Part shown: in pieces, positions 2,910 to 50,440 of the stretch | Numbering within the stretch: position 1 is the first letter of the stretch | How the letters are laid out: each line of letters opens with the position of its first letter | NCBI GenBank assembly: GCA_002748055.1 | Contig: PDRI01000095.1 | Location: 69,081 to 119,520 of the forward strand | DNA from: Bacteroidota bacterium | GTDB lineage: Bacteria; Bacteroidota; Bacteroidia; Bacteroidales; GCA-2748055 | Direction: 5' to 3' | DNA length: 50,440 nt | The notes under the pieces: generated by a model | Database searches by the model: none | The model's input: only the letters and a program-made list of their open reading frames with translations | What the model was told of the DNA's origin: nothing | Translations under genes and position numbers: made by a program

Positions 2910-2926
2910 TGGTAAAAATGTATGTC

Positions 2927-7271: not shown

Positions 7272-7295
7272 TTGCTTTTCGTAAGAAGAGTTTTA

Positions 7296-7303: not shown

Positions 7304-7514
7304 GTTTATTCGTGCAAGATATCCCTAAAATCATCTCAATGGGGGAAAAAACGAAATGAAAAATATTTCTTAAATTTATACATGAATCTGCCCAAAAAGG
7401 CAGGAGGCTAAACACCCCCGATTAGAAAACTCAGCTTTACGGCAACCCTCCTGAAATCAGTACATGAACCAACAGGCGCTTAGCCGCTATTGAAAAACCG
7501 ACCCTTCCTGTGCA

Positions 7515-18373: not shown

Positions 18374-18630
18374 ACCACAATAATTAATTCAATATGAATG
18401 ATTTATGAGATACTGTGCCATCCCCCTTTCCTGGCTGTCACTTCCCGGCCAAACATATTGCAATGACGCATAAAGGTAACTATAGCTGAAGGATTAGTCA
18501 ATGCACAAGGGGGAATGAGTATATTTATCCGATGCTTGCTGGAAAATACCATACTTTATCAGAAAAATAGGGAACCATGCCCATGCTACATATTCATACT
18601 TTTAGGGTTGGGTTGAAAAACACAATAAAC

Positions 18631-20583: not shown

Positions 20584-20686
20584 GCCTCTCAGTCCCCGTT
20601 TACCTGCGCGCAAGCCATTCTGTTTGCACCCGTTTTGGAATGGCCGCCGATGCTCAGCCTTTCATCCTCCGGCTTTGCCTGAATGC

Positions 20687-22432: not shown

Positions 22433-22449
22433 AGCTGTAATCCGATAAT

Positions 22450-25758: not shown

Positions 25759-25975
25759 CAATCAGATAGTTTAGTTCGGTTTTTAGCTCCTGATGTCCGG
25801 GCACTTTTGTTCCTCCCCAGTTTTCGGGCACAGGCATTGCCTCATGCTGAGAGCTCTGGCTCTGTCAGGATTCTGCTCAACTTAGGTGGCACGAGCACAG
25901 CCATGATGGCTTCAGTCCTAAATCTTTCGCAGGCCACAGTATGCCATCGGATATGGAAGCAGACCGTTTAAGGGC

Positions 25976-33365: not shown

Positions 33366-34604
33366 CTAATCAAAGAATCTGTTCTGGAAAAAATTCACGG
33401 CAATGAACCCGTAGAGTCCGCAAACCGCTACGATCAGCAGATCGGTCAGGTTGTTGCGCAGCCTCAGGCCGGTCTTCCGGATGATGAAAAACTGAATGAC
33501 CAGCAACAGCAGATGTAAAAACAGGAAGTTAAAGCCCCTGGTCCTTTCCACATAGAGATTCAAAAAACGACTGTTTCCCCTTGCCAGGCCGATCTCGGCG
33601 GGAAACAGGAAGCCGGCTATACGGCCCTGAATGCTTTCGGCCCGCGGACGCCAGTGTTCTTCATACTCATCCACCTTGCGGTAGAGGCTGTCGAGGGCAA
33701 CAACCTTTATGTATGCTTGGCGGCGCATGCTCAGGGTATAGTTGAACATATTGCCGAAGATGCGCAACTCATCGGTCTCGGGAACCAGCCCATCGAGGGG
33801 CAGGCGGACAAATTCATAATCGTCCTGGCTAAGGATCCAGACCGAGTTATCCGCGGAAATCAGGTAGCAATAGTACTTCTTGTCGGGGAAATCGACGCAG
33901 GCAATGTGCTTAAAGGGAAGGCCCTTTGGCGGGCTTATCTTCCTCACTGAGGGTGCGGCCCCGATCATCTTGACATGAAAGAGCTCGTTTTGGCTGTCGA
34001 CGATAAAGTAGCCTTCGTCGCAGGATTTTCGGGTGGTGGGCAAACCCGCAACCATCGTTGCCGGAAACTGAAAAGACTGCTTATTCAGGGCTTCGGTAAA
34101 GGCCTGGCTCTTGGCTTCGTTCAGCGTATTCGATTCCGCATCAATAAATTCCATACGTGCATCAATCCGGAAATAATCATCCGGCAACTCCAGCCTGGCC
34201 CTTCCCGACGCCGACTCAAACATCGGATAGAGGCCGGGCTTCGGGCTCCGCATATCGGATGGTCGGTACCTGAACGATGAGCGGGCCTCGGCAATGGCCT
34301 GCATCTCCATGGCTTTGCCATGCAGGCTGTCGGGCATGCTTCCTGAAACAAAGAGCTGGCGGGCAAAAAAGAGGGGAAGCTTCTTCTCGTAGTCCTCACG
34401 GGTATATACAGTCCCCTTCCTGTCGGTGCGGACCACCTCCCCCTTCAGGTGCCGGAGTATGATGAAATCGTTCTCCGAGGCGCTGTAAAGGATGAAGGGG
34501 GCTGAAACCGGCTTTTCGAAAGCCAGCCAGTACAAGGCCGGAAGGCTCACCGCCGCTGCGAGGACAGTCATCAGCACCAACATATATCTACTCATCTTGC
34601 TCAT
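33366..34604 (-). CDS. DUF4857-like inner-membrane protein with large periplasmic domain
   Basis: N-terminal TM (LPALYWLAFEKP..PFILYS), LPLFFARQL, LYPMFESASGRARLELPDDYFR, PTTRKSCDEGYF, two C-terminal TMs; start taken as ATG 34604. Confidence 0.75.
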   Translation of the reverse strand: MSKMSRYMLVLMTVLAAAVSLPALYWLAFEKPVSAPFILYSASENDFIILRHLKGEVVRTDRKGTVYTREDYEKKLPLFFARQLFVSGSMPDSLHGKAMEMQAIAEARSSFRYRPSDMRSPKPGLYPMFESASGRARLELPDDYFRIDARMEFIDAESNTLNEAKSQAFTEALNKQSFQFPATMVAGLPTTRKSCDEGYFIVDSQNELFHVKMIGAAPSVRKISPPKGLPFKHIACVDFPDKKYYCYLISADNSVWILSQDDYEFVRLPLDGLVPETDELRIFGNMFNYTLSMRRQAYIKVVALDSLYRKVDEYEEHWRPRAESIQGRIAGFLFPAEIGLARGNSRFLNLYVERTRGFNFLFLHLLLLVIQFFIIRKTGLRLRNNLTDLLIVAVCGLYGFIAVNFFQNRFFD

Positions 34605-34633
34605 CGTGCATCTCCTATAAGCATGGGGGTTCA

Positions 34634-35302
34634 TTAGACGGCGCCCTTCCTGAACCGGTAAGCAGAAAAAGTCAGGGAGGTACTCAAGGCCACAGTCATG
34701 GCTGCAAGCGTCCAGTTAAAATGGGCATAGCCTCCGGCTACACTTTTCTTAAAAAAGAAGAGGACAAAGGCTGCGGAGGCTAGCAGATAGGCCATGCGGT
34801 ATTTCCAAAGCGTCTCCATCACAATCAGTGCAGCCAGGGCATAGGCCACAAATCCGGCCAGGAACCAGGGAGTGACAGAGATGACCGCTGCCCGGACGAT
34901 TTCGGATGGAAAAAAATGGGAACTCAGCAAAAGGAAGAGCGCAAAGATCAGCCCATAGCAAATGCAGAGCAAAAGGTAGCCATAGCCCAGCATCATCAGC
35001 AGCACCCGGTTTTCACCAAGGGGAAGGTGGAAGCTTAGTTTAATCCGTTTATTTACGATCTCGGGAATGTACTGGACCAGGGCAATAAGCACCCCGGTGG
35101 CAAGGGGTATATACTTCATTCCATTGAAATACAATAGATTCTGAAAAAGAATAAAGTGCCAGTATTTGTGTGCATCGTTAAAGGTTATGCTGTGCTGCAC
35201 CTTCAGAAAGACGGCTCCGCACCCGGCCATTCCAAGCACAAGCACAAGCAGGAAAAACCACCTGGTCTTGATCCATTCTTTGTATATCAACGACTTTAGC
35301 AT
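34634..35302 (-). CDS. Multi-pass membrane protein, probable ABC permease
   Basis: LIYKEWIKTRW N-terminus typical of ABC-2-like permeases; ~6 hydrophobic segments; starts 4 bp after the ATPase stop. Confidence 0.75.
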   Translation of the reverse strand: MLKSLIYKEWIKTRWFFLLVLVLGMAGCGAVFLKVQHSITFNDAHKYWHFILFQNLLYFNGMKYIPLATGVLIALVQYIPEIVNKRIKLSFHLPLGENRVLLMMLGYGYLLLCICYGLIFALFLLLSSHFFPSEIVRAAVISVTPWFLAGFVAYALAALIVMETLWKYRMAYLLASAAFVLFFFKKSVAGGYAHFNWTLAAMTVALSTSLTFSAYRFRKGAV

Positions 35303-35306
35303 ACCA

Positions 35307-36194
35307 TCAGTATTTTCCGGTCAGGCCGATAAAGGCATCCTCCAGGCTCATTGGAAGCATCCTGAAATCGGCATATTTCATTCCCTTGCTGTCGAGGAAG
35401 CCCCTCACAAAATGCTCCTGTTCGAAGGTATAGAGCACCACCTCGTTTCCCGACTTTTCAATGCTTAGTACAAAGCCTTCTTTTGCCAGCTCAGGGTTTT
35501 CCCTTTCCAGGCTGAACTTATATTGCCTGAAGCTGCTCATAAATTCATCCAGGGGCCCATGCGCCAGTACCCGGTTATAGTCCATGATAAGGACATCGTC
35601 GATCAGGCGCTCCATGTCCTGAACAATATGAGAAGTGGCAAAGACAGTCTTGTTTCCCTCCCTGACATAGTCCCTCAGATAGTCGATAAAAAGCCTCCGG
35701 TAGCCCGGGTCAAGCCCCATGGAAAAATCGTCAAGGATAAGCAAATCGGGGTCCTGGGCCAGGATGAGCCCGAGGGCCACCTGCGATCGCTGGCCACAGG
35801 ACATGGTAGCGATCTTCTGCCGTGGGCCAACCTTCAGCTTCGACATCAGTTCCCAGTAGGGTTCGCTGTTCCAGTGCGGGTAGAAGCCTGCGTAAAACTT
35901 CTCAATCTGGTGGATATCCATAAAGGCATATTGTACATGCCCCTCAATCAGGAAACCGATGCGGCGCTTGGTCCGGGGTGAAAGCCGCTGGGTATCTTCC
36001 CCGTAAATCAGGCATTCTCCCTCCCGGGGTTGCAGAAAACCGTGAAGAATATTGATGGTTGTCGTCTTCCCCGCACCATTCTTACCGAGGAGGCCGAGAA
36101 TACTTCCCTCCCTGACATCGAAGCTGAGGTTCTCATAAACCAGCCTTTTCCCGTAATAGTGGGTCAGGTTTTTGCATTCGATCACATTGCTCAT
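35307..36194 (-). CDS. ABC transporter ATP-binding protein with variant motifs
   Basis: Walker A GKNGAGKTT; signature MSCGQ; Walker B LLILDD; H-loop ATSH. Confidence 0.93.
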   Translation of the reverse strand: MSNVIECKNLTHYYGKRLVYENLSFDVREGSILGLLGKNGAGKTTTINILHGFLQPREGECLIYGEDTQRLSPRTKRRIGFLIEGHVQYAFMDIHQIEKFYAGFYPHWNSEPYWELMSKLKVGPRQKIATMSCGQRSQVALGLILAQDPDLLILDDFSMGLDPGYRRLFIDYLRDYVREGNKTVFATSHIVQDMERLIDDVLIMDYNRVLAHGPLDEFMSSFRQYKFSLERENPELAKEGFVLSIEKSGNEVVLYTFEQEHFVRGFLDSKGMKYADFRMLPMSLEDAFIGLTGKY

Positions 36195-36204
36195 CTATCT
36201 TGTC

Positions 36205-37776
36205 TTAAAACATCACAGCTGCGGCGAAGGTCCATACAGCCCGTCGGTATTCTTCCCCCGGATAAAGTGCCGACCAGGCCAGGTAGCGCTGCCCCCCCAG
36301 TGAGAAATGGATTTGGTCAAATACATGTTCCAGGGCCCGGGCATAGCGCAGGCTGAAGCCGGGTGCAAAAAAATCGCAGCTAAGATAGTTAAATTCGGGA
36401 AGCAGGAGCTTCTGGGCCAGGAAGCCTCTTTCATCATAGTCCCTGAAGCTGTCCATGTTTTGCTTCCACCTGATATGAACACCCAGCTCCAGCTCATTCT
36501 CTCCGAATAGGAAAGTCCTGTCCACAGCAAGACTTACCAGGGCCTGCCTGAATCCTTCCTGCATATCGGGCAGGTAATAGGCCCGTTTCTGCTTCCAAAA
36601 ATGCAAACCAATCTCCAAGCCGTACAAAGGCCTGTATTCCTCCCTGAAACGGAGAAAGCGATAATCAAACCCCAGCTTGCTCAGCGATGCGGCATACTTT
36701 TCCTCCTCACCGTAGTCCACCCAGTCGACTGCACCCAGATCACCGACCTGCTCGAGCCGCTGCATGATCTCTGCTCCCACCATGTAATGCAGGCTATAAG
36801 AGCTGCTCAGCCTGTGCATGGCCCCCGGACGATGGAGGGTGGTCAGGTTTTGCAAGAGCATCTTGTTGCCCTCCAGTTTCGAGTCGTTTTTGACAAAGGA
36901 CCAGGTGGCATCCCCGGCCTTCCTCCCGTCATCGGCATTCTCCCTGAAATACAGAAAGCGCCCGATAAAAAGCGATTTCAGCTGCCGGAACGAAAGGTTC
37001 AGCTGCCCTTCTCCACCCGCCGTACCAGCCTTGTAAAGGCGGTTGTAGGAGGCTGCCACATGATAGGTGTAGCTGTTAAACCCATGCAATTGAAAAAACG
37101 CCAGCTGGGTATTCTTCCGGATAATGTCGACCTCTATGTCCTCGTTGTAGTAGCTGAATAGCCCGTTTACCCCCAGCTGCAAGGCCTCCCCTTTGTAGAG
37201 CAGTCCGGGAGAAAGCCCAAGCCGCATCAGCTTGTTGGCCGGCCTCGGATCCCTGTCCTGTGAAGCCAGTCCCACATCCAGGCCCGCCGAAAGCCCCCAG
37301 TAGAGCCCGGGAAGCAGAGGCGCAGATACATCACCCTTCAGGCTAAAAAACTCCCTGTCGGTCACCTCATTTTGCGCCATGGTATCGATCAGTAAATAGG
37401 GCGTAGCCCGGTAGGGATTTTCCACCTCCGAGAACCTGGATCCCTGTTCAAAACTCCTTTCGTAGGAAAAAAGCCCGTAGAGGGCAGTTCGATTGATCCG
37501 CCGGTATTTCTCTGTACTGAAACGGTAGGCCCGCAGCGAATCGCCCTGCATAACACGCCTGTAGTCCCCTGCTTCCGCATCATGGCTAAGCCCGAGCCTG
37601 CCTGCCTGCAGGGTTGGCGGATCATATTCGTGTGCGGCCGGGTTGCTGCTGTTCAGCCAGGGGTTGTAGAGCTCCATCCGCTCAAAAACACCCGCCGGGA
37701 TCTTCGTGCTGTCGCTTTGAGCCGGCAGCAAAACAGGCAGGAGCATCAACAGGCAGGCCAGCACGCTACTCTTCAT
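36205..37776 (-). CDS. Outer-membrane beta-barrel protein (DUF6850-like)
   Basis: Signal peptide from MKSSVLACLL (ATG 37776, overlapping upstream stop); NPWLNSSNPA, ASQDRDPRPAN, alternating beta-strand pattern, C-terminal Phe. Confidence 0.72.
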   Translation of the reverse strand: MKSSVLACLLMLLPVLLPAQSDSTKIPAGVFERMELYNPWLNSSNPAAHEYDPPTLQAGRLGLSHDAEAGDYRRVMQGDSLRAYRFSTEKYRRINRTALYGLFSYERSFEQGSRFSEVENPYRATPYLLIDTMAQNEVTDREFFSLKGDVSAPLLPGLYWGLSAGLDVGLASQDRDPRPANKLMRLGLSPGLLYKGEALQLGVNGLFSYYNEDIEVDIIRKNTQLAFFQLHGFNSYTYHVAASYNRLYKAGTAGGEGQLNLSFRQLKSLFIGRFLYFRENADDGRKAGDATWSFVKNDSKLEGNKMLLQNLTTLHRPGAMHRLSSSYSLHYMVGAEIMQRLEQVGDLGAVDWVDYGEEEKYAASLSKLGFDYRFLRFREEYRPLYGLEIGLHFWKQKRAYYLPDMQEGFRQALVSLAVDRTFLFGENELELGVHIRWKQNMDSFRDYDERGFLAQKLLLPEFNYLSCDFFAPGFSLRYARALEHVFDQIHFSLGGQRYLAWSALYPGEEYRRAVWTFAAAVMF

Positions 37777-38968
37777 TGATCCACGGTTTTGGCAGTACAT
37801 CCTTTTCAAAGTCCTCCGTAGAATTGTTCGTGTCCTGGTAGATAAAGCGTCCATCCACCACGGCCTCGACCTTGCGGCGAACACAGAGGCCCGACCTGGA
37901 TCCCGAAGCTACGTAGGTATAACCTGCATCAAGCTCGGGCGGAAATCGTTTGTAGATGGCATGTGCCTCATCCCAGGTCACTTCCACAGCATCGAGAATG
38001 TATTCGTTAGGCACCCTGGCGTAGTAGCGGGTCGAAGAATTGAGCTTCAAAACCAGATGATGGTCGATATAGTCCTGCCATTCCTCCTGCGTTCCCGGAT
38101 AGAGTGCAAGTGCAATTGCGCTGCCCCCACGGGTATGAAAAACATAGTCGCTTCCCCTGAAAGTAAAGAGGGTCTCAAGCATGTTATCGGCGTGGGGAGC
38201 ATCCAGGTCGCTCCCATTCTCATGCTTCACCCAGAACTCGAAGTCGGCAAACTCCAGGTTTACCGGAGAAAGCGGATTCCCATATTCCGGATCCTGGTGG
38301 TTGATGCCATCCCTGGCAATCACCACGCTCTCGCCCGGTGCCAGGGGATAGTCATCGCCGTCGCCCGGGATGGTCCATATAGCGCGCGCTACAATGGTGT
38401 CCTCGATGTCTTTCCAGTAATTCTCCTCAATGGCATAAGATTCATGCTCCACAAGGGCCAGCCGGTCGATGTACTGCAGCTGCTCCGAATTGTTGTGGAT
38501 CTCGATAAACTGATCCGAGGAATACTGCTTCCCGGCCGGGGTCAGGCAGGCACTGTAATAGTATTGCTTAATAACAAAAGCACTGGTCTGGCTCAGGACA
38601 ATATCAAGGGTATCGCTGAGATCGGAAAAAACATCCACATTCTGCAAACCATTGATATGGTAAGACTTACCCCGGTGGCTGAAGCTATGCAAAATGGTAG
38701 CACTGTAGAAACCGGGTTCGATACCCTGAAAGGACACCCGGCCCGAATCACCGGTGTAGCGGGTGAGGCTGTAATTCTTGGTCAGATTACTCAACACAAG
38801 CTTTGCTCCCTTCCGGTGTTCCTCCGGTACATCCTCACCGAAATCAACCACCAGTTCAAGGGAAAAGGCATGGTAAACAGGCGCGGGATCGACACAGGAC
38901 GCCAGAATCAGCAGCATACAACAGATGCCGGCAGAGAGAAATGAATGGGGCCTGTTGGTCGTTCTCAT
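37766..38968 (-). CDS. DUF4876-like surface lipoprotein
   Basis: Lipobox LASC; DQFIEIHNNS, WTIPGDG..YPLAPGES, ADFEF, ILDAVE, YQDTNNSTEDF. Confidence 0.78.
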   Translation of the reverse strand: MRTTNRPHSFLSAGICCMLLILASCVDPAPVYHAFSLELVVDFGEDVPEEHRKGAKLVLSNLTKNYSLTRYTGDSGRVSFQGIEPGFYSATILHSFSHRGKSYHINGLQNVDVFSDLSDTLDIVLSQTSAFVIKQYYYSACLTPAGKQYSSDQFIEIHNNSEQLQYIDRLALVEHESYAIEENYWKDIEDTIVARAIWTIPGDGDDYPLAPGESVVIARDGINHQDPEYGNPLSPVNLEFADFEFWVKHENGSDLDAPHADNMLETLFTFRGSDYVFHTRGGSAIALALYPGTQEEWQDYIDHHLVLKLNSSTRYYARVPNEYILDAVEVTWDEAHAIYKRFPPELDAGYTYVASGSRSGLCVRRKVEAVVDGRFIYQDTNNSTEDFEKDVLPKPWINEE

Positions 38969-41700
38969 ATCTTTACAATCAACTCTGAACCAAAATAGAT
39001 CGACGGATTCCTGCGGGTATAGCTTTCCGAACGGATGTACTGATACATGGGCCTGTAATTCATAAAGTTGTTCACAAAGAAACTCAGCTTCATCCTTTCA
39101 CCAATTTCCTTTGAGAGCCGGATATTCGCCAGGAAAAGCGGCGGCAGCAGTTCGGTCAGATAGTAGTTGTCGCGTTTCTCATTGTAGTAACGCATGTAAG
39201 CCGGATCGCTCCGCATGGCCTCGGTATAGGGCGTGATGTTCCCCTTGCGGTCGAAGAGGTAGATGGGAGCCTCGTCGTAAAAAGGATAGTAATACTTGTC
39301 GAACCAGACCATCTGCAGGGTGGTTGAGAGGATCATTCGAAGGGCGGGTACCTGGGTAACCATGCGCAGATTGGTATTCAGGCGCTCCGACACCTTCGAC
39401 TCGCCGGCCGGATACATCCCAATTCTTTTGAATTGCTCGGGCGAGGCACTGGAGGGGAGACGGGGATAATCGACCGTACTGAAACAGCGCACTGTCCTGA
39501 GGTAAGCTCCATCAAGATTAAAGGAGGTATAGAGGGCATCGATTTTCCCGAATTTGAATACGAATTCAATGCCGGACTTCAGGGTTCGCCGGTTATTCCC
39601 GGGACTCCGGTACGAGATGATATACGCAAAGTCTTCGGTGGGCAGGCTTCCCGGGTCGGGTTTCGTCCCGGGCGGAATGCTGTCGCGCAGGTAGCGGTAC
39701 GAACTGATAAATTCGTAGCGGGAATTGAACTGAAAACCATGGCTCAGGTTCTCACGGAAAAAGGTAATGCTCCCGCTCACCGGCCCCGCCACGAATTCCA
39801 GCCCAAACTCCTGTTTCAGGTTATCGGAAGGCCGCAGACCGGGGTTTTCCGTATCGTAAACCAGGGTGTTGAAAACCGACATCCGGGTTTCCGGATTGCC
39901 GGTATAATAGTCCAGCACACTCAGGTCGTAATAGGCCCTGTCGGGATAGAGGTAGAGCAGGGAGGGCGCTTTGTGGGTCTTCCCGATTCCGGCATTCAGG
40001 CAAAGCATCCTGAAAAGCCGGTTGTTTCGCCTATTCAAGAGTTCGAAAGAGATGTTCAGGCGGGGCTCAAGGTAGAAACCCACATCGCTTTTCACCAGCC
40101 GACGGGGCTGAAAGTTATTCAGCCGGAGGCCCCCTTGCAGCTTCAGCCTGCGGGTCCCAAGAGGAAGCACCAACCGGTCCTCCAGATAGAGCGAATAGTG
40201 GGCTTGAGCAGGGATGCTGCGAAAGGACCTGGGCCGACTGCTGAGGCTCGAAATAAAGGGAGGATTGGCCACATCATAGAGCTGTCCCGCCCCATAGTTC
40301 TTGTTGAAACGATAGTCTCCCCCGGCCAGCAAGCTATTAATGAAGCCATTGTCGAAATGAAGGACCTTTTTGAGGGTAAGCTGACCAAAAACATTGACTG
40401 GCCTTCCGTCGATGCGAAGCTCCGTCAGCTGCTCCGTGGGCAGGTAAATGCCTTCGTTTTCTCCCGCCTCCAGGGCAAGCGAGACCGGAGCAACACCTCC
40501 ACTGCTGCTCCGGTACATCTTCTGATAGCTTTCCTGGCGGGCAGATGAAAGGGACCAGGTATAACTGATGTCGCTCAGAAAGCGCTTGTTCAGCAGCCAT
40601 TTCCCCCCCAGGTTAAGCCTCACTCCTTTCTCAGCGCTCTCATATTCCTCCTCTGCCACCAGGGCATCGGGATCGGTTCTGGCGTTGTCGAGGGTCCCGA
40701 ATGCGCCCAGCCGGGCATGAAAGGTCAGGGGCATGCTTGCCTTCATCCAGGTGGTGGAATAGGCTAGCTGACCGGTCAGGCGTTTATAGCCCTCATACCT
40801 GCTGACCACATTGCTGTAGGAAGAAAGATAATCGATGTTCATATTCAGGAATCCCCCCGAAGACGGAAGCCTGACTCCTTTTTCGGCTGCAAGTTGCTTA
40901 GTCTTCGGATCGGCCTTCAGACGGAAGCTGAAGGGACTGTAGCCAGCCTTCGTTTTCACCACCACCGCCCCGGAAGTCAGGTCACCATAAACAACCGAGG
41001 GAATGCCCCTGATTACTTCAACGGACTCAATATTGTCGCTCGAAATCCGGCGCAGATCCACACCCGCACCCGCAACTGAAGAAAAGCCCCCCTTCCGGGC
41101 TACAGAGGTAGCCATGGCCTGCAAATTAGCATCGTTCGACAGGGGGGCATTGTCGACCAGAATACTGGTCCCCATGGCCGAGTTAACATCCCTGCCTATC
41201 TCACGAATGGCCATCTGCTGAGGCTTCGACAAATCGGGGTTCACCGCCAGATTTCCCGGCAAGAGCTGCATAACATCGCTCAAACCGGTAGCCTGGACAT
41301 GCTCAATGGCTGCCGAAGCAATGGTGGAAGAGCTGGCCATGCTGCTCCCCTTTTTAGCCAGGACATTGACTTCTTCCATGTCATAGGCCGTTGGCACAAG
41401 CAGCACGGTCAGCTCTACCCCCTTATCGAAGCGAAAAGCTTCGACCTTCTGTTCATAGCCGAGGCATCGAATCTCCAGGGTGTAGGCACCCGGCTTCAGT
41501 TGCCCGAAAACAAAGTGCCCCTGCTCATCGCTGATGGTCCAGCGCTCTGTTTCCCTGATCTGAATCGCGGCACCGATGACCGGTTCCCGGGTCTTCCTGT
41601 CCCTTACCTCCCCTTGCAATCCCCGCGATTCCTGGGAAGTGAGGGGTAAGCATGTGCAGCTGAGCAGCAGGATCGACCATATAAAAAGACGCCTCAACAT
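38965..41700 (-). CDS. TonB-dependent receptor (non-SusC type) with carboxypeptidase-regulatory-like N-domain
   Basis: Signal peptide; AIEHVQATGLSDVMQLLPG, APLSNDANLQ, GVDLRRISSDNIESVEVIRGIPSVVYGDLTSGAVVV plug motifs; start taken as ATG 41700. Confidence 0.92.
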   Translation of the reverse strand: MLRRLFIWSILLLSCTCLPLTSQESRGLQGEVRDRKTREPVIGAAIQIRETERWTISDEQGHFVFGQLKPGAYTLEIRCLGYEQKVEAFRFDKGVELTVLLVPTAYDMEEVNVLAKKGSSMASSSTIASAAIEHVQATGLSDVMQLLPGNLAVNPDLSKPQQMAIREIGRDVNSAMGTSILVDNAPLSNDANLQAMATSVARKGGFSSVAGAGVDLRRISSDNIESVEVIRGIPSVVYGDLTSGAVVVKTKAGYSPFSFRLKADPKTKQLAAEKGVRLPSSGGFLNMNIDYLSSYSNVVSRYEGYKRLTGQLAYSTTWMKASMPLTFHARLGAFGTLDNARTDPDALVAEEEYESAEKGVRLNLGGKWLLNKRFLSDISYTWSLSSARQESYQKMYRSSSGGVAPVSLALEAGENEGIYLPTEQLTELRIDGRPVNVFGQLTLKKVLHFDNGFINSLLAGGDYRFNKNYGAGQLYDVANPPFISSLSSRPRSFRSIPAQAHYSLYLEDRLVLPLGTRRLKLQGGLRLNNFQPRRLVKSDVGFYLEPRLNISFELLNRRNNRLFRMLCLNAGIGKTHKAPSLLYLYPDRAYYDLSVLDYYTGNPETRMSVFNTLVYDTENPGLRPSDNLKQEFGLEFVAGPVSGSITFFRENLSHGFQFNSRYEFISSYRYLRDSIPPGTKPDPGSLPTEDFAYIISYRSPGNNRRTLKSGIEFVFKFGKIDALYTSFNLDGAYLRTVRCFSTVDYPRLPSSASPEQFKRIGMYPAGESKVSERLNTNLRMVTQVPALRMILSTTLQMVWFDKYYYPFYDEAPIYLFDRKGNITPYTEAMRSDPAYMRYYNEKRDNYYLTELLPPLFLANIRLSKEIGERMKLSFFVNNFMNYRPMYQYIRSESYTRRNPSIYFGSELIVKI

Positions 41701-41731
41701 TTTGTCCGTTGGCCGCAAAGGCCAGAGCGAA

Positions 41732-44143
41732 CTAGTGGGAAACCACCAGCTTTCTCGTGGTCACTTCACCGCTGCGATCGCGGAAGGAGATGAAATAGAA
41801 CCCATTCTTCAGGGCTCCAAGATCCAGGGTGGTGTTCACCGAGGAAGCTTCCACGTCCATCACCAGGCTTCCGGTGGCCGAGTGGAGGGTAATCCTGTCG
41901 ATACGCTCCAGATTCTCCAGGTAAAGCAGATCCCTGACCGGATTCGGGTAAAGCCTGATCGAATGGTTCGCGTCATTCAGATCCTTTTCAATGATGCCTG
42001 TATTGTTCTCAGGTGCCTTCAGACCGGAAAGCGGAATCTTATACAGGTCTGTCTTGGCAAGGGCGACAAGCTTGTCGTCCATGATCCCGCCAATGCTCCA
42101 TATCGTGCTACCGGGGTAGCAATCGGTCCAGTTCTGGCCGGCATCCCAACTGATTTTTGACTTGGTGGAAGACCCCAGGACAAGGATGGTGGTATCGTTC
42201 AACAAGGTCATGCCGTTTCCACCCCCGATCCCGGGCAATAAGGCATAGTTCTCTCCACCGTCCTCGGTGACAAATACCCCGTCGACTGAGCTGAGCAGGT
42301 ACCATTTTTGTGCATCGACATAAACCATATCCTTCAAAAAGAGCGTCGAATCATCGGGGCTGCCCGTCTGCTGTAAGGCGGGATAAAGGTCGCTGAAAGT
42401 CTTCCCTCCGTCTTCCGTTTTTTGGAAAAAGGTGTTGCCCAGGAAATAGCCGGTCGATTCACCGGTGAAGACAATCTTGTTGAAGACCTTGTTGCCCTGA
42501 TCCTCAAATACAGGGGCCCAGGAAGCACCGCCGTCCTCGGTCCGGAATACATTGCAATGGCTCAGTTTGTTGTCTATTCCGGCAAGGCTGTCGAGCCACC
42601 TTGCGCCCAGGAAGGCAAGCGTATCGTTGATGCCTTCCACAAGCAAGGGATCGAAACCATAGGCTCCCTCTGCACTTGGATTCATGGCCGGATCATCGCC
42701 CTCTCCAACAGCCGTATAATCGAGTAATTCCCAGGTTTCCCAAAGGTCGGTACTTTTATACATCAGGCCGTGCCCATAGACATCCTGAAGGTCGGAGGAA
42801 GAAGGGTAATCAATCATGTAGAGCCGCTTGCTCACTGCATAGGAGACACCGGCAGCCGTACTAACCGATTCAAAATCGTAGTCGGCACCATTTACGAAGA
42901 GCGCGGGCGTTTCCACAGGGCTCCAGCTGATGCCTGCGTCGCTGGTGGCTACAAGGGTCTGCCCGTATCCGGCAATGATGGCATGCGTGGCATCGACTAT
43001 GTGCATCTTCTGCAGATTCTCGCCCGGGTTGATCTCCTGGCTCACCCAGACATTGTTCCGCAAGACGGCATCGGCCACAGCACATTTATAGAGATTCGAT
43101 TTCGCCAGCGCGACGATGCTGTCATTCATGATCCCTCCAATCTCATAGCAGGTAGCACCCGGATAGAAATCGGTCCAGGTCGCTCCCCCGTTTGTGGTGA
43201 TCTTCGATTTGGTTGAGGACCCAAGGACCAGGTAAGTACTGTCGTTCACAAGCAGCATATCGAATCCGCCACCGGGGGCATTGTCCCCGGCCATCAGCTC
43301 GAAAGAGGCCCCTTTGTCGAGGCTCTTGTAGATTCCGTTTGTGGAGGTAACAAGGTAAAAAGTATCTGCATTTACAAAGGCAAAGTCAAACACGAAAACG
43401 GTCTCATCCTCAGCAGCCAAAGCCAGATTATCATAAATATTCGTCACCGTCCCCGTGGCGATATCGGCCCTGAACAGGTGATTCAGTCCTCCGTAGTACA
43501 CATCTTCGGCTGTGGATTCGATGGCAACCGAGTAATTTCCTCCGTCGGTAACCGACGACCAGCTCGTTCCATCGTCCGACATCAGTACCCCCTTCACCGT
43601 TTCCTTTGGGGCCTGTGCCGATTCGTAATAGTACCATTCCACGGCAAGGTATACACTTCCGTTCTCAAGGACATCTACTCCCCTAAAATGCATGGCGTAA
43701 CAGCCCATCTCGTTCGGATTCTCCATGTAGCCTTCTTCCGATCCGATTTCACTGATATCGACCAGCTCCCAGCTGACGCCATAATCGGAGGTCTTCAGCA
43801 ATACCCCGTCGGCATAGACATCCGGTTCCCCATCAGCGGGATTATCGATCACCTTAGCGTCGGCCGAGATGGCATAACCCAGTCCCGAACTGTTGATGCT
43901 CAGATCTTCGAAATTATACTCCGGAGCAAGAACCCCGATGTCCTGCCAGCTGGCACCCCGGTCGGCCGAGGTCATCAAAGTTCTGCCATATCCGGCCAGG
44001 ACGGCAAAGGTATCGTTTACGATATCCAGGTCTTTCATATTCTGTTTCTCCCTGATATACTGCGATTCCCACTCAAAAGTATTCTGGGCAAAAACAGTGA
44101 ATGACAGCAGCAGTGCTGCAACAATGGTAAAGGTTCTTTTCAT
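41732..44143 (-). CDS. T9SS-secreted double BNR/Asp-box beta-propeller protein
   Basis: Start MKRTFTIVAALL (ATG 44143; upstream extension is non-coding-like); many S/T-x-D-x-G-x-S/T-W Asp boxes; ~350-aa internal duplication; CTD LYPNPV...GFYFISF. Confidence 0.85.
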   Translation of the reverse strand: MKRTFTIVAALLLSFTVFAQNTFEWESQYIREKQNMKDLDIVNDTFAVLAGYGRTLMTSADRGASWQDIGVLAPEYNFEDLSINSSGLGYAISADAKVIDNPADGEPDVYADGVLLKTSDYGVSWELVDISEIGSEEGYMENPNEMGCYAMHFRGVDVLENGSVYLAVEWYYYESAQAPKETVKGVLMSDDGTSWSSVTDGGNYSVAIESTAEDVYYGGLNHLFRADIATGTVTNIYDNLALAAEDETVFVFDFAFVNADTFYLVTSTNGIYKSLDKGASFELMAGDNAPGGGFDMLLVNDSTYLVLGSSTKSKITTNGGATWTDFYPGATCYEIGGIMNDSIVALAKSNLYKCAVADAVLRNNVWVSQEINPGENLQKMHIVDATHAIIAGYGQTLVATSDAGISWSPVETPALFVNGADYDFESVSTAAGVSYAVSKRLYMIDYPSSSDLQDVYGHGLMYKSTDLWETWELLDYTAVGEGDDPAMNPSAEGAYGFDPLLVEGINDTLAFLGARWLDSLAGIDNKLSHCNVFRTEDGGASWAPVFEDQGNKVFNKIVFTGESTGYFLGNTFFQKTEDGGKTFSDLYPALQQTGSPDDSTLFLKDMVYVDAQKWYLLSSVDGVFVTEDGGENYALLPGIGGGNGMTLLNDTTILVLGSSTKSKISWDAGQNWTDCYPGSTIWSIGGIMDDKLVALAKTDLYKIPLSGLKAPENNTGIIEKDLNDANHSIRLYPNPVRDLLYLENLERIDRITLHSATGSLVMDVEASSVNTTLDLGALKNGFYFISFRDRSGEVTTRKLVVSH

Positions 44144-44280
44144 CGTTTCAATTTTTGTATTCAGCAATTCGTTTTCTCTTTTGTGCCGCGCTTCCATACC
44201 AGGAGTGCCAGCTCCGGGAAGGGCTTGTCCCCATCCCAAAAGCTTGCTATTCAATAGCCCGATAAAACCCCGCACAACCG

Positions 44281-44342
44281 CGAAAGATATCAAATGAGGG
44301 CGTCCTTTACAATCCCTATTTTTAGCTATTTTAAGCCCTATT
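44281..44342 (-). promoter_or_regulatory. Putative promoter of the 7-gene operon with upstream direct repeats
   Basis: TATCTTTCG (-7-like, 44281-44289), TTG ~20 bp upstream, CCCTATT repeated at 44314 and 44336. Confidence 0.4.
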
Positions 44343-44567
44343 CCTTCCCCCTGTTTCTGTCCCCTTCCCGACAAAAAACGCCCCGGATTTCCTTCACCGC
44401 TTTTCAATTCTGTGAACACATTCCGGTCCAAAGCATGGCTTCCTTCATGCAAAAACGGGAATTATTCGATAAATAAACTAAATTTACAGGGCTCAGATTT
44501 CATTCAGCTCTGCAAGCCTCGTCTCCACCCGGAACCATTCAATCGAAAAATAAGACCCCCTAACTAT

Positions 44568-45971
44568 ATGTACTCCCTGAGAAATTTAAACGCCCGAAAG
44601 AAAAACCGCGACAGAAGCTTTCAACAGCTCCCTGGTCTAATGCTGCTTGTCTCTTCCATATTCATTTTTTCCTGTCCGGAAGGGAGAGCCCAGGAATTGC
44701 CACTCTTACAGGTCACCAGGAATGGCCACTACCTCGAAACAATGGAAGGCAAGCCCTTTTTCTGGCTGGGCGACACAGCCTGGGAATTGCTGCATCGAGG
44801 CAATAAAGAGGAGATCCGCTTCTACCTGGAAGACCGTGCGGAAAAGGGGTTTACAGTAATTCAGACTGTCATACTGGCCGAACTCGACGGACTCAATACC
44901 CCCAATGCTTTGGGCGACCTGCCCCTGATCGACAATGATCCCTCCCGTTTGAATGAAGCCTACTTCCGGCTGGTTGACTATACCATTGAGCTGGCGGAGG
45001 AACTGGGCCTCTATGTTGGCTTGCTGCCCACCTGGGGAGATAAATTCAGCAAACTATGGGAAACCGGTCCTGAAGTGTTTACCCCGAAAAATGCATTGCA
45101 ATACGGAAAGCTGCTGGGAGAACGTTACAGGGAGCATAACAACATCATCTGGATCCTGGGGGGCGACCGTATTCCAGAGAAAAAAGTGCATTTTGAGGTG
45201 ATAGAAGCCATGGCCGAAGGCATCCTGAAAAAGGACAATAGACACCTGATAACCTATCATCCTTGGGTTACCCACAGGGCCAGGTCCTACTTCGACGCTG
45301 AATGGCTCCAACTGGATATGTACCAGAGCGGACACGAGCGCAATGCAAAGGAATATGTTTACCCCCTGGAAAGCAGGGCAATGCTTCCTGCTAAACCCGT
45401 AATCAACGGGGAGGCTCGCTATGAAAACATTCGTGAACATTTCTGGAAGGAAAACCCGGGCCCATGGCTCGACCAGGCCGATGTACGAATATCCGCATAC
45501 TGGAGCATGCTTGCCGGAGCGGCCGGCTACAGCTATGGCTGCAATGATGTTTGGCAATTGTATGATGAGCACAAAGAACCTTCGATTATGGCCCGCACGG
45601 GATGGAAGACTGCACTGGACCTGCCCGGAGCCGTACAAATGGGCTATATGCGTGCTTTCTTCGAAACACTGCCATGGCAGAGCCTGGTGCCGGACCAGAG
45701 CCTGATCCTTTCCGATAATCCTGAAGGGCCTGCTCACTGCCGCGCAGCCAGGCTCGAGGACGATGGCAGCATACTGGTTTATGTGCCCCGGGGAACTCCG
45801 GTTAAGGTAGATCTTTCCGGCATACCCGGAAAAGCAAAGGCTTCCTGGTTCAATCCCCGTTCCGGGCTGTCTCATCCCATCGGCATTGTAGCCGGGGGCA
45901 AAAGCCGGGAATTTAAACCCTGGGCCAGCGGGCGTGGAAGCGACTTTCTGCTTGTCCTTGATCTGGAATAA
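44568..45971 (+). CDS. GH140 / DUF4038 family (apiosidase-like) with C-terminal collagen-binding-like domain
   Basis: GKPFFWLGDTAWEL, KGFTVIQTV, LLPTWGD, WILGGDR, ITYHP, YQSGH, NGEARYE, ASWFNPRSG; start uncertain (44568 or 44640). Confidence 0.87.
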   Translation: MYSLRNLNARKKNRDRSFQQLPGLMLLVSSIFIFSCPEGRAQELPLLQVTRNGHYLETMEGKPFFWLGDTAWELLHRGNKEEIRFYLEDRAEKGFTVIQTVILAELDGLNTPNALGDLPLIDNDPSRLNEAYFRLVDYTIELAEELGLYVGLLPTWGDKFSKLWETGPEVFTPKNALQYGKLLGERYREHNNIIWILGGDRIPEKKVHFEVIEAMAEGILKKDNRHLITYHPWVTHRARSYFDAEWLQLDMYQSGHERNAKEYVYPLESRAMLPAKPVINGEARYENIREHFWKENPGPWLDQADVRISAYWSMLAGAAGYSYGCNDVWQLYDEHKEPSIMARTGWKTALDLPGAVQMGYMRAFFETLPWQSLVPDQSLILSDNPEGPAHCRAARLEDDGSILVYVPRGTPVKVDLSGIPGKAKASWFNPRSGLSHPIGIVAGGKSREFKPWASGRGSDFLLVLDLE

Positions 45972-47587: not shown

Positions 47588-48265
47588 CTATTTCTCCTTC
47601 CTCTTATTCTTTAAGTCTTCCAGAATTTCTGCGGCAGCGTCCTTACCTCCAAGGCCAAATGCAATTCCAAAAGCAAGGCAAAACGCCCCAAATAACAGGA
47701 TAAAGGCGTTTGTGATGATATCCTGAGCGATCCTGAGCTGCCCCAGAACAAGAAAAATAGTAAATATAACGATTGAGTAGTATGCAACCTTTTCAATCAG
47801 ATCGGCCGTTTTATCCTTCATATTCTTCAGCGAAGATGATAGCAGAGTGGCTACGAACTTGGCTGCATACAAACCAAACAGCAGAATGATCAGGGCAACA
47901 ATGATATTCGGAATAAACAAAATGATGCTGTTAAACAATTGCTGTGCACTTGTAAGCTGTAAAGAATTGAATACCGCCAGAATGACCGTCAGCATGATGA
48001 TCCAGTAAAACAGACTGCCCAGCATATCCACAGAAGACTTCTTTAAGCCACCTTCCTTCAGGAACTGTTCAATCCCCACTTTATCTGCAAGCTTGTCAAT
48101 TTTAACCACATACAATAGTTTGACAATGGCCTTTTTAATCAACCGGGCAATTATCCATCCGATCAAAAGGATCAGCAAGGCACCAACAATTTTGGGCAGA
48201 GCCACTGCAATTTCGTTCAGGAATTGCTGGGAGCTTTCGAGAAAAATTCTGAATTGTTCTTTCAT
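47588..48265 (-). CDS. CmpX-like / MscS TM-helix-repeat membrane protein
   Basis: LPKIVGALLILLIGWIIAR, FIPNIIVA, AFGIAFGLGGKDAA. Confidence 0.8.
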   Translation of the reverse strand: MKEQFRIFLESSQQFLNEIAVALPKIVGALLILLIGWIIARLIKKAIVKLLYVVKIDKLADKVGIEQFLKEGGLKKSSVDMLGSLFYWIIMLTVILAVFNSLQLTSAQQLFNSIILFIPNIIVALIILLFGLYAAKFVATLLSSSLKNMKDKTADLIEKVAYYSIVIFTIFLVLGQLRIAQDIITNAFILLFGAFCLAFGIAFGLGGKDAAAEILEDLKNKRKEK

Positions 48266-48447
48266 AACAGTAAGGTTTAGGATTAATTCAAGTTGCCAAG
48301 TCTAACATCAAACACCAGTGGGTTTACCTCCACCAATAAGCTGGCTAAGCAGAAGATCTTGCAGTCCTTTATCCGCAATGGACCGGCTGGAAGCCTTGAT
48401 TTCTGCAGGTTAATCATTGTGGTGTAATTGAGCGTAGCAAGTATGGT

Positions 48448-48975
48448 TTATGTATCGACTAATATAGAAAAATACTCCCGATTTTTGTTGCGAAAGCCTG
48501 AAACTTGAGGACGATTGTAAATAAGTTTGCTGAAATCTCCGCATTTACTGAAAAACTGCCCCGAGAGACCTGTTGCAATAAGCTTAATATCAGATATATC
48601 TGGTATCAGAGTCGTGTTAAAATCTTTTTGTAAGAGCAACGAATATCTTGGAACCTTAAACTTTTTATTCATTCTCGCATATATGTAAGCATATTTCCCA
48701 TCATTTAATACACCCTTACACATATCTCCAATTTCTGTTACAACTTCTTTGATTTTAAATTGCTGTTCTGGTGTTACGTGTATATCTGGATTATATTGAT
48801 TATCTACTTGCTTTATTTTTGTTTTTGGAGGCTGACTGTAATTATTTATTTCTATTTTGTTGTTGTTGCCATCTATGACCGTATTGTTATTGCCGTTTAT
48901 ATTAAATCTAGCATTAGCTGGATTAGACAGCATCTTTTCCATACTTCGCTTAACTGCTTCATCATTAATCCTCAT
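48448..48975 (-). CDS. Phage ORF6C-like protein, apparently truncated/fused at ~48615
   Basis: HVTPEQQFKIKE...IYARMNKKFKVPRYSLLLQKDF matches an ORF6C-like pattern; residues after KDFN lie in higher-GC DNA; start overlaps repressor end, SD AAGGA. Confidence 0.6.
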   Translation of the reverse strand: MRINDEAVKRSMEKMLSNPANARFNINGNNNTVIDGNNNKIEINNYSQPPKTKIKQVDNQYNPDIHVTPEQQFKIKEVVTEIGDMCKGVLNDGKYAYIYARMNKKFKVPRYSLLLQKDFNTTLIPDISDIKLIATGLSGQFFSKCGDFSKLIYNRPQVSGFRNKNREYFSILVDT

Positions 48976-49354
48976 GGGCTTTCCTTATTTTTAATAATTT
49001 TTCTTCAAATTCTCTTATTAGTTTTGGCGTTGCATATTCTTCTATTAGCTTAAATAAATTTTGATATTCAGATGTTGATTGTTGTGTTTTTATAGTGTTA
49101 TTATTCCCTAGTGTCTGAATATTATTATTGCCAAGAATTAATTGAGATTTATCATATTTATCCTCATCCAATAAACATTCATAATCTACTTTTGTCATTT
49201 GACTACATTCAAGAATATATTTTTTTGGAATTTTTTTTCTATTTCTCCATGTACCAAAAGTTGTTTTAGATACTTGCATTATTTCTGCTAAATCGTCCAT
49301 ATTATGGCACTTATAAGCTTTTTTCATATTCTTTAATACTTTTGTAACATTCAT
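48965..49354 (-). CDS. Phage CI-like repressor (HTH)
   Basis: DLAEIMQVSKTTFGTWRNRKKIP HTH typical of Phage_CI_repr; AGGA SD before ATG 49354. Confidence 0.8.
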   Translation of the reverse strand: MNVTKVLKNMKKAYKCHNMDDLAEIMQVSKTTFGTWRNRKKIPKKYILECSQMTKVDYECLLDEDKYDKSQLILGNNNIQTLGNNNTIKTQQSTSEYQNLFKLIEEYATPKLIREFEEKLLKIRKAHED

Positions 49355-49375
49355 TTTCAATTGTCCTATAATTGT

Positions 49376-49413
49376 AGTCATATCTTGACTTTTTATATTC
49401 ATTTGACTATAAT
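49376..49413 (+). promoter_or_regulatory. sigma70-type promoter TTGACT-N17-TATAAT with overlapping operator-like palindrome
   Basis: -35 at 49385-49390, -10 at 49408-49413; AGTCA-TATCT-TGACT at 49376-49390. Confidence 0.7.
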
Positions 49414-49530
49414 ACGTTTATATTTTATCAAACATTTGCACGAATAATACACAAATGATTTATAAAAAGAGATAAAAGTTCTTTAATTTTTCATTGTTAA
49501 GGGGATAAATTTAACCATAAGGAGTAAAAA

Positions 49531-49737
49531 ATGGATAAGTATGAAGAGTGGTTAGAGGCAGAGAAAGTGCGTGGCAAAATTGATGATGATTGTCGCCCTA
49601 AGAAAGAAAATCCTACACTTTTTGAAAGTGCAGAATTTATATGCGATCATTTAAAAAAGTATCACGACAAAGATACAATTATTGTCTTACGACTTTGTGC
49701 ATCTATTTTTGGGTTTCGTTTGGTTTTGATGGATTAG
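49531..49737 (+). CDS. Small phage hypothetical protein
   Basis: AAGGAG SD 6 nt before ATG; first ORF after rightward promoter. Confidence 0.55.
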   Translation: MDKYEEWLEAEKVRGKIDDDCRPKKENPTLFESAEFICDHLKKYHDKDTIIVLRLCASIFGFRLVLMD

Positions 49738-49867
49738 CTTTTAGCTCGTTAAGAATTTTATTGTAGAGCTTGGCGATCCCCTCTGGATAAGAACTGGTTT
49801 TTATACCATTTAATGCTTGAGGCAAAATAAGTTTGACAAGCTCTAGTGCTATCTCTTTATCGTTCAT
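49703..49867 (-). CDS. 54-aa phage hypothetical protein (not in ORF track)
   Basis: AGAAAGGAC SD then MNDKEIALELVKLILPQALNGIKTSSYPEGIAKLYNKILNELKANPSKPNETQK*. Confidence 0.6.
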   Translation of the reverse strand: MNDKEIALELVKLILPQALNGIKTSSYPEGIAKLYNKILNELKANPSKPNETQK

Positions 49868-49966
49868 TTTTAAGTCCTTTCTTATGAATTTTGTTTGCAG
49901 ACTAATTATATCAAAGGGCTTAAAAATATCCCCTTAACAATGAAAAAAAGAATAAAGGAGGAAAGT

Positions 49967-50179
49967 ATGACAATAAATGACAGAATCCGTGAAGATTACG
50001 GAACGTTGACGCATTTTTGTAGGAAAAATGGCATAAATATTACAACTTTAAAAGTTGTTTTGAGTGGTCATGGAACATCTAAGCCACTGGCAAAAAAGCT
50101 TAAAAAGATGGGGTATATAAAAAATATTGATGAGCTTAGGAAGATAAGACAAGCGGTACTGGAGAGAAAAGCGGTATGA
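49967..50179 (+). CDS. Ner/Cro-like small HTH DNA-binding protein
   Basis: AAGGAGG SD; YGTLTHFCRKNGINITTLKVVLSG HTH pattern; divergent from repressor. Confidence 0.65.
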   Translation: MTINDRIREDYGTLTHFCRKNGINITTLKVVLSGHGTSKPLAKKLKKMGYIKNIDELRKIRQAVLERKAV

Positions 50180-50440
50180 ATAGCAAAGAGGTTTCTACTT
50201 TAGTTGGTTGTTCTGCTCAGAATATACGCAAGAAAACCAAACAAGCACTTGAGAGGGGTGAAAATACTTTGTCGGTAAAAGGCAAGGTGTTTGAGTTTGC
50301 TTTGGTGCAAAATAGAAGCGGTAAGGCTTATGAATATAAGGAGGTGGTTGATGCTACATATAGACACGATAGACATCTTGATAATTTGCATGACATTGAT
50401 AATTTTAAAAACAATAAGGAGATAAAAGATGAAAAAAATA
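50176..50440 (+). CDS. Putative Mu-type/excisionase-like winged-HTH DNA-binding protein (3'-open at window edge)
   Basis: ATGA overlap with previous stop; MNSKEVSTLVGCSAQNIRKK...GKAYEY; no stop before window end. Confidence 0.5.
   Translation, partial: MNSKEVSTLVGCSAQNIRKKTKQALERGENTLSVKGKVFEFALVQNRSGKAYEYKEVVDATYRHDRHLDNLHDIDNFKNNKEIKDEKN

Follow-up and report, generated by a model that had tools for sequence, protein, structure and literature searches.

Two loci that respond to iron are the closest described counterparts of the gene cluster analyzed in this work, which lies at positions 33366-44143 of a 50,440-nucleotide stretch of DNA (hereafter, the window; contig PDRI01000095.1) from a Bacteroidota bacterium. 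Upon iron depletion, BT3625-BT3633 of Bacteroides thetaiotaomicron was reported to be induced 36-128-fold, BT1933-39 3.5-7.4-fold and PG1019-22 of Porphyromonas gingivalis 20-214-fold (PMC10434189). As described in the same study, BT3625-33 encodes a DUF4857 protein, hypothetical proteins, an ATP-binding cassette (ABC) ATPase, two PepSY proteins, a fimbrillin-family protein, two DUF4876 proteins and a TonB-dependent receptor (TBDR), and PG1019-22 encodes a DUF4876 protein, a TonB receptor and hypothetical proteins (PMC10434189). PG1019/1020 were also described to rise together with the Hmu genes in a hemH mutant without haem, and were still termed an uncharacterized transport system in 2026 (PMC13096392). 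The signal peptide of BT_3630, a lipoprotein of the BT3625-33 locus, was reported, when used as a secretion carrier, to put cargo on the surface of outer-membrane vesicles (PMC11554821). DUF4876 proteins have been predicted to be open lids of TonB-dependent transporters (TBDT), with an opening of about 20 Å, and receptor/DUF4876 pairs were reported to be adjacent in 59-81 genera (bioRxiv 10.1101/2023.03.17.533168). Iron and metal uptake is poorly mapped in Bacteroidota in comparison with Proteobacteria, and, according to the published induction values, some members of the family to which our cluster belongs are among the genes of B. thetaiotaomicron and P. gingivalis that iron starvation induces most strongly (PMC10434189). 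The original prediction for this DNA, made from the letters alone, had pointed to an iron link for similar loci, and the reported induction of BT3625-33 and PG1019-22 bears it out (PMC10434189). It had also envisaged that the locus might map fully to an already characterized system of known substrate; literature searches on the DUF families and locus tags (supplements aside) retrieved no such match. Our results indicate that the cluster is a real conserved operon and that it represents one non-Sus system across Bacteroidota, as had been proposed: its genes are co-conserved and its receptor is not of the SusC type. As for its function, we consider the chances about even that it is a metal, most probably iron, acquisition system.

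Seven minus-strand open reading frames (ORFs) fill the interval, and neighbors are spaced at most 31 bp apart or overlap by 1-11 bp, according to the ORF list and translations. In the order of transcription, they are the following (T9SS, type IX secretion system):

41732..44143, minus strand: secreted T9SS double beta-propeller, 803 aa, with signal peptide; operon gene 1 and accessory part
38965..41718, minus strand: non-SusC TonB-dependent outer-membrane receptor, 917 aa (CarbopepD_reg_2 and Plug)
37766..38968, minus strand: DUF4876 lipoprotein, 400 aa, predicted surface lid of the receptor (Pfam match and lipobox LILASC)
36205..37776, minus strand: DUF6850 outer-membrane beta-barrel, 523 aa, without plug domain (Pfam match and AlphaFold model)
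35307..36194, minus strand: ABC ATPase, 295 aa, of the ABCA/DrrA/NosF/GldA-like class (ABC_tran)
34634..35302, minus strand: six-span inner-membrane permease, 222 aa, orphan family (hydrophobic spans)
33366..34604 (or 33366-34634), minus strand: DUF4857 membrane protein, 412 aa (Pfam match)

The TBDR gene may start at a TTG (41718) or at an ATG (41700), which leaves a gap of 13 bp or 31 bp, respectively, to the propeller gene. The DUF4876 gene overlaps the TBDR gene by 4 bp (ATGA) and the DUF6850 gene overlaps the DUF4876 gene by 11 bp; gaps of 10 bp and 4 bp precede the ATPase and permease genes, and the DUF4857 gene is separated by 29 bp or overlaps by 1 bp depending on the start chosen, the 412-aa start being the one used by database homologues. 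Seven co-directional, tightly packed genes had been predicted, and the ORF coordinates agree; the identities assigned to the parts were likewise correct in every particular when checked with Pfam, NCBIfam and the translations. No SusD, solute-binding protein or carbohydrate-active enzyme (CAZyme) family was matched by any of the seven proteins in Pfam or NCBIfam, also in accordance with the original prediction.

Control searches matched DUF4857, DUF4876 and DUF6850 each in B. thetaiotaomicron. BT3625-33 and PG1019-22, as far as their published descriptions go, have Pfam families in common with the window cluster, and orthology rests on these shared families. The set that distinguishes BT3625-33 (TBDR, DUF4876, ATPase, permease and DUF4857 on one strand) is present in the window cluster; BT3625-33 adds two PepSY membrane proteins, which are absent from the window cluster, and a fimbrillin-family surface lipoprotein, and its published gene list names no T9SS propeller. 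PG1019-22, as listed, is without the ABC module, unlike the window cluster. BtuB-BtuG, XusA-XusB, BT1939/BT1938 and BT3633/BT3632 are systems of a TBDT with a non-SusD lid lipoprotein. The window cluster is like the DUF4876 pairs, as published, in that a non-SusC receptor is followed on the same strand by a DUF4876-family lipoprotein, whereas these TBDT-lid systems have neither an obligatory second barrel nor a linked DUF4857 ABC unit. Another precedent, described for iron piracy from a small protein, is Fus/PqqL, which combines a receptor with an M16 protease in the periplasm and an inner transporter that has no binding protein (PMC6793856). Fus (FusA/B/C/D) and YddB-PqqL, as described, share with the window cluster the combination of a TonB receptor and an inner transporter without binding protein. 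However, FusA/YddB are a different receptor clade, Fus has no lid, second barrel or DUF4857, and the M16 protease of these systems is paralleled in three of our loci (L089, L091, L093) but not in the window cluster. Finally, SusC/SusD loci resemble the window operon in outer-membrane uptake, in the pairing of a receptor with a surface lipoprotein and in the N-terminal carboxypeptidase-regulatory-like domain; in contrast, the receptor of the window operon fails the SusC model, and the operon is without SusD, CAZyme or sensor.

In order to survey synteny, 80 loci were fetched from reference genomes with an alignment of DUF4857 proteins and the seven window proteins were placed on them by tblastn; core-gene counts use those 60 loci in which the sequence upstream of DUF4857 extends over at least 7.5 kb. 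All six core genes, from TBDR to DUF4857, are found on one strand in 56 of these 60 loci, and 51 of the 56 complete loci keep the window order. In the four incomplete loci (L012, L020, L050, L057), DUF4876 and/or DUF6850 were undetected by tblastn. Furthermore, among the 58 loci of at least 19 kb, 56 have a TBDR along with the ABC module, and in L096, which is without DUF4876 or DUF6850, a divergent TBDR still immediately precedes the ABC genes. At a larger distance, in a sample of 401 Bacteroidota genomes from 180 genera, DUF4857 was found in 19 genomes (13 genera) and DUF6850 scored above its cut-off in 30; both occurred in 10 genomes, within 6 kb of each other in nine. The ATPase and permease genes precede DUF4857 in all 18 other, distant DUF4857 genomes. 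These synteny counts in related and distant loci show that the seven-gene arrangement is not due to chance, and the synteny survey that the original prediction had called for finds the genes co-conserved (56/60, 18/18 and 56/58). The proposal of a seven-gene unit has nevertheless to be amended: the six core genes travel together, whereas the T9SS propeller is a frequent accessory, with homologues in 31 of the 60 loci, adjoining the TBDR or the ATPase.

The remaining five complete loci are circularly permuted (ABC-permease-DUF4857-TBDR-DUF4876-DUF6850). The break point of this permutation lies between DUF6850 and the ATPase, and the same junction holds an insert in 11 loci. Permutation and insertion at this junction divide the cluster into two modules; therefore, what is conserved is a set of six genes, composed of the modules TBDR-DUF4876-DUF6850 and ABC-permease-DUF4857. 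DUF6850 follows DUF4876 wherever that family occurs, with or without the ABC module, and it is missing where the ABC module adjoins a divergent receptor without DUF4876. Since it tracks DUF4876 and not the ABC module, DUF6850 belongs to the receptor-lid module.

The TBDR has a plug followed by a large barrel, as expected of a TonB-dependent receptor. In Pfam, it matches CarbopepD_reg_2 (2.1e-15) and Plug (1.3e-10; 42.2 bits, cut-off 23.9). The barrel Pfam was not matched by the window protein, which has partial FepA-type barrel segments at residues 489-657 in NCBIfam, and the homologue in L084 matches TonB_dep_Rec_b-barrel (2.4e-09). Its score against TIGR04056 (SusC/RagA) is 61 bits, far under the cut-off of 368.25, with the alignment limited to residues 34-260; the TBDR is therefore not SusC-type, as the original prediction had it. 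Weak matches to the solved PfeA structure were also obtained. The adjacent lipoprotein belongs to DUF4876 (PF16215; 1.6e-45, 155.9 bits, cut-off 27.9), the SusD family being found in none of the seven genes. Its lipobox LILASC was read from the translation, it is related to the solved structure 4q1z, a 'putative lipoprotein' (8e-41), and it is predicted, by analogy with the published pairs, to be the lid of the receptor on the cell surface. The DUF6850 protein (PF21012; 1.4e-67, 229.3 bits, cut-off 27) was modeled by AlphaFold with a pLDDT of 84.4 as a large barrel without plug, of about 18-20 long strands. Foldseek singled out no fold family for this model (TM at most 0.40), and a VIA search returned generic barrels, the best with Z 17.6 (CymA, FhaC and porins). 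As the model resembles all big barrels about equally, its fold does not reveal its role. A FadL/PorQ-like assignment was considered and dropped: FadL is among the Foldseek matches and is absent from the top 50 of VIA, and an N-x-A stretch near residue 45 is only partly conserved.

With regard to the inner module, the ATPase matches ABC_tran (2.4e-22) and is 68-82% identical across related loci. By its class, whose members partner ABC-2 type permeases, it would suit an ABC-2/type V transporter. Its NCBIfam matches are partial, with PmtA, DrrA, NodI and GldA as the best, all under their cut-offs, and CcmA at 4.4e-21; among its best solved relatives are the nucleotide-binding domains of ABCA3/7/4/1, 4yer and NosF (1.2e-21, one of many solved ATPases matched). 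The permease, with six hydrophobic spans read from the translation, always lies between the ATPase and DUF4857. It has no match in Pfam or NCBIfam and no solved relative by profile search, and among 18 relatives only one touches ABC2_membrane_4, weakly (1.8e-4). The DUF4857 protein (PF16149; 1.3e-87, 294 bits, cut-off 25) was modeled by AlphaFold (pLDDT 68.2) with an anchor helix at the N-terminus, a beta-rich domain (residues 37-350) and two C-terminal helices. The positive-inside rule would place the beta domain in the periplasm. Residues 119-318 of the protein resemble part of a beta-propeller, with Z values of 7-9 that are near background. In three loci (L096, L100, L101), permease and DUF4857 are fused as a single ORF of 657-662 aa, whose N-terminal part (~230 residues) aligns with the permease family, starting at the first motif of the latter, and the same fused length and offset is found in eight of the 150 best of 768 family representatives. 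Because of these fusions, we consider DUF4857 a subunit of the ABC unit. It had been proposed to stand in for a binding protein; the fusions place it in the ABC unit, whereas substrate binding by it would be conjectural. No Cys or His is universally conserved in the family. One DUF4857 locus is atypical: L087 (G119:C2) is without a nearby TBDR, is preceded by ThiF and thioesterase genes and followed by a C10 peptidase, and its DUF4857 is shorter (355 aa), with the C-terminal helices missing.

The propeller is composed of two Ycf48/BNR-like halves, Ycf48-like proteins being its only solved relatives by sequence, and matches PSII_BNR (5.6e-15), Sortilin-Vps10 (1.2e-10) and Por_Secre_tail (PF18962, 3.4e-09) in Pfam. 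It ends in a type A T9SS sorting domain (PF18962, 37.3 bits, cut-off 27; TIGR04183, 34.8 bits, cut-off 23). A double propeller followed by a C-terminal domain is, we presume, also the architecture of PorZ; however, this likeness was set aside, as PorZ (5m11) was not found by sequence search. The same double-propeller architecture occurs in the distant clusters L086, L089, L091, L093 and L116. In eight of 12 loci examined, a NapH/MauN/NosR-like membrane polyferredoxin of about 640-660 aa takes the place of the missing propeller, and this protein is found in 18 of the 58 long loci. It is encoded upstream of the TBDR in L015, L017, L019, L026, L056, L073, L076 and L077, and also in L089, L091, L093 and L094; it consists of Fer4_5 and a dicluster domain, a weak MerTP-like stretch (295-410) and a long C-terminal half without known family. 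FeoB is encoded two genes upstream in L095 and L096, FecR and an STN-type receptor are found in L093, and L089, L091 and L093 carry double M16 proteases. In four of ten stand-alone trios (L108, L109, L110, L112), a di-haem cytochrome c peroxidase (CCP_MauG) comes next after DUF6850. The copper-uptake receptor MbnT, of the MbnT/MbnP/MbnH system, is associated with the MauG-like di-haem protein MbnH, and the peroxidase of the stand-alone trios is reminiscent of the arrangement of MbnH beside MbnT. Thus, the recurrent neighbors are redox or metal proteins, and no CAZyme or SusD was found inside any cluster scanned.

Taken together, the constant coupling of the ABC module to a TBDR, the redox and iron neighbors and the published iron response point towards metal acquisition, the reading to which we give about even chances, with iron as the probable substrate in this organism. 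The substrate would be a scarce metal species, most likely iron in a chelate, a cofactor or a small-protein carrier. It would be captured by DUF4876, which would cover the non-SusC receptor as an open lid, and the double propeller exported by the T9SS may help to capture it at the cell surface. TonB energy would then drive the substrate into the periplasm, with the DUF6850 barrel as a fixed third partner of the outer module. At the inner membrane, the ATPase, the six-span permease and DUF4857 would form one binding-protein-independent ABC complex, with DUF4857 as its built-in periplasmic domain, which would take over the imported cargo and presumably translocate the cargo or its metal inwards. 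Since the ABC unit is the only inner-membrane transporter encoded in the cluster, parsimony makes it the inner-membrane step of the same pathway. Only tentatively, and with more doubt than confidence, we propose that ATPase-permease-DUF4857 is a new class of binding-protein-independent engine for TonB-dependent uptake, either as the first bacterial ABC-2-like importer with a propeller-like receptor domain or by ATP-driven stripping of metal or cofactor from an imported carrier in the style of NosDFY/CcmAB, and that DUF6850 is an unrecognized third part of lidded TonB transporters. If the ABC unit indeed worked as an importer, or as an engine for extraction in the periplasm, this would be a new solution for the step from periplasm to cytoplasm, and the system might be a possible target in oral and gut Bacteroidota. 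The two swappable modules, the place of DUF4857 in the ABC unit, the constant second barrel of the outer trio and the redox partners are new, and they allow testable hypotheses to be drawn from what was a list of DUFs. The nearest relatives of the source organism are Bacteroidales metagenome-assembled genomes (MAGs) and Prolixibacteraceae (Draconibacterium, Maribellus, Tangfeifania), and the cultivable Draconibacterium and Maribellus, which carry the full cluster, make the system approachable; among these carriers are Draconibacterium orientale DSM 25947 (L071), Draconibacterium mangrovi GM2-18 (L062) and Maribellus luteus XSD2 (L072).

Several observations weigh against metal acquisition with an importing ABC unit. 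To our knowledge, ATPases of the class of ABCA, DrrA, NosF, GldA and CcmA have been described in exporters and periplasmic mechanotransducers but not in importers. The outer trio also exists without the ABC module, including a second copy in the same MAG. No Cys or His is universally conserved in DUF4857, and its fold could be modeled with no more than moderate confidence (pLDDT 68). In addition, genes for a reductase, FeoB or a protease are lacking in the cluster, its neighbors in the window are glycan-degrading genes, and searches of the MAG, which is 82% complete, yielded neither a polyferredoxin nor an M16 homologue (for M16, with the L091 protein as query, E<=1e-6 and at least 40% coverage). 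At the level of regulation, no operator was recognized upstream of the operon, no regulator gene adjoins the cluster, and no riboswitch was detected with Rfam, either in the whole window at gathering scores or in 43900-44700 at E<=1. Besides, the B. thetaiotaomicron homologues are reported to have no phenotype in 519 fitness experiments (bioRxiv 10.1101/2023.03.17.533168).

The first of these points bears on an alternative that we regard as possible although, on balance, doubtful: the cluster would serve metal acquisition, but ABC-permease-DUF4857 would be an ATP-driven periplasmic engine or an exporter and not an importer. NosDFY with NosR and CcmAB are ABC-2-like ATPase/permease pairs that act on a periplasmic partner, and PvdRT-OpmQ expels the pyoverdine carrier. 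By analogy, the unit could strip or hand over metal or cofactor in the periplasm, like NosDFY and CcmAB, or expel an emptied carrier after reductive release, like PvdRT-OpmQ with pyoverdine, the metal entering via FeoB or another route. The nearest ATPase relatives (ABCA-type, DrrA, NodI, GldA, NosF and CcmA) speak for such a function, and the tethered periplasmic domain fused to the permease is mechanotransducer-like. The unit has in common with NosDFY/CcmAB the ATPase class, the six-span permease and a periplasmic partner of its own in place of a binding protein, and the NapH/NosR-like polyferredoxin in many related clusters parallels NosR. Membrane electron carriers are nearby, with the polyferredoxin in 18 of 58 loci and, as published, PepSY proteins in BT3625-33 (PMC10434189). 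In L095 and L096, the cluster has FeoB beside it, which would allow iron to cross as Fe(II). On the other hand, the window cluster encodes no other inner-membrane transporter, and neither NosD, CcmE nor membrane-fusion proteins were matched in the seven genes by Pfam or NCBIfam. The same searches showed no NosL, NosZ or CcmC family, no Nos family is among the best 25 of 185 NCBIfam matches of the ATPase, and all the scores are far below the equivalog cut-offs. NosDFY and CcmAB are not known to be coupled to a TonB receptor, unlike the ABC unit of the window cluster. As to an exporter, DUF6850 is not a dedicated exit duct for it, because it is found without the ABC module and the ABC module is found without it (L096, L100, L101).

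We consider it unlikely that the cluster imports a non-metal nutrient (an oligosaccharide, a peptide or a small protein), with the propeller as a glycan- or peptide-binding or -degrading surface protein. The surroundings would suit such a function: the window is rich in polysaccharide-utilization genes, including an apiosidase-like gene divergent from the operon, the propeller weakly matches Sortilin-Vps10 and the F510_1955 'glycosylhydrolase' family (47 bits, cut-off 175), and M16 or C10 proteases lie near some clusters. However, the CAZyme neighbors are not conserved across the 80 loci, no cluster scanned contains a CAZyme or SusD, the recurrent neighbors are redox or metal proteins, and the homologous loci are reported to respond to iron (PMC10434189). 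The genes flanking the cluster were rejected as members of it: the apiosidase-like gene has weak 28% matches in two of the 80 loci (L009, L011), the WbsX-like gene is matched in one (L006, 21%), and the S58 peptidase and arylsulfotransferase-like genes in none. An envelope-spanning export or assembly machine like LptB2FGC-LptDE or Lol, delivering lipid or lipoprotein to DUF6850 or maturing the propeller before export, is very improbable: its parts, as in Lpt (ATPase, six-span permease, anchored periplasmic beta domain, large outer barrel and outer lipoprotein), are paralleled here and the propeller gene directly precedes the ABC genes in three loci (L020, L050, L057), but the ABC module is constantly accompanied by an importer, the TonB receptor (56/58), trio and propeller both occur without that module, and the presence of DUF4857 in just 19 of 401 sampled Bacteroidota genomes does not correspond to a general biogenesis factor.

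Regarding the promoter of the operon, the motif (A/T)TATGTTYGATTT is found after AAAGT in 11 of 22 upstream regions of orthologous operons. This motif resembles the Bacteroidota -7 box (consensus TAnnTTTG), and the recurrent k-mer was rejected as a regulator site because it looks like an ordinary promoter box of this kind. There is no exact match to the motif in the window, where a similar stretch, gtaaaggacgccctcatttgat, was chosen by eye; sigma-70 and terminator scans remained near the shuffle expectation.

44284..44310, minus strand: tentative promoter, -7 box-like stretch, by resemblance to upstream regions of orthologous propeller genes

The insert at the DUF6850/ATPase junction encodes a secreted protein of 722-740 aa with weak HEAT-repeat matches, located at about 6200-8430 in each of the loci that carry it (L009, L011, L018, L021, L030, L045, L047, L048, L061, L070 and L075), with a weak Peptidase_C25 match in L048; the same protein is also found behind the stand-alone trios L107 and L116. 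The source MAG (2.5 Mb, 160 contigs) carries one ABC module only, versus two outer modules. The second of these, a paralogue at a contig end (G000:C106:12095-19902; locus L102 8095-15902, minus strand), comprises a TBDR with about 40% identity to that of the window, DUF4876, DUF6850 and a 751-aa secreted HEAT-repeat protein, without ABC module. A palindrome upstream of this paralogous receptor was rejected as an operator, as it is part of a repeat of about 70 bp that is also present on C81. This repeat, with the perfect 8-1-8 palindrome TTTAGATT-N-AATCTAAA, lies at G000:C106 ~19950-20040 and, in the opposite orientation, at G000:C81 ~2300-2375, and may be a small mobile-element end or a miniature inverted-repeat transposable element.

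The rest of the window is mostly made up of polysaccharide-utilization genes and T9SS cargo. The segments 12-4606, 11013-15449 and 15446-25761 hold two SusC/SusD pairs, a hybrid two-component regulator and glycoside hydrolases GH106, GH97 and GH5, that is, ordinary polysaccharide-utilization loci, and two further T9SS cargo proteins are encoded at 7515-10961 and 25976-28495. At the end of the window (48001-50440), the G+C content falls to 0.33 versus about 0.50; this stretch contains a gene for a phage CI-repressor-like helix-turn-helix protein (48965-49402, minus strand) and an ORF without family (48448-48975), and possibly marks the edge of a mobile element.

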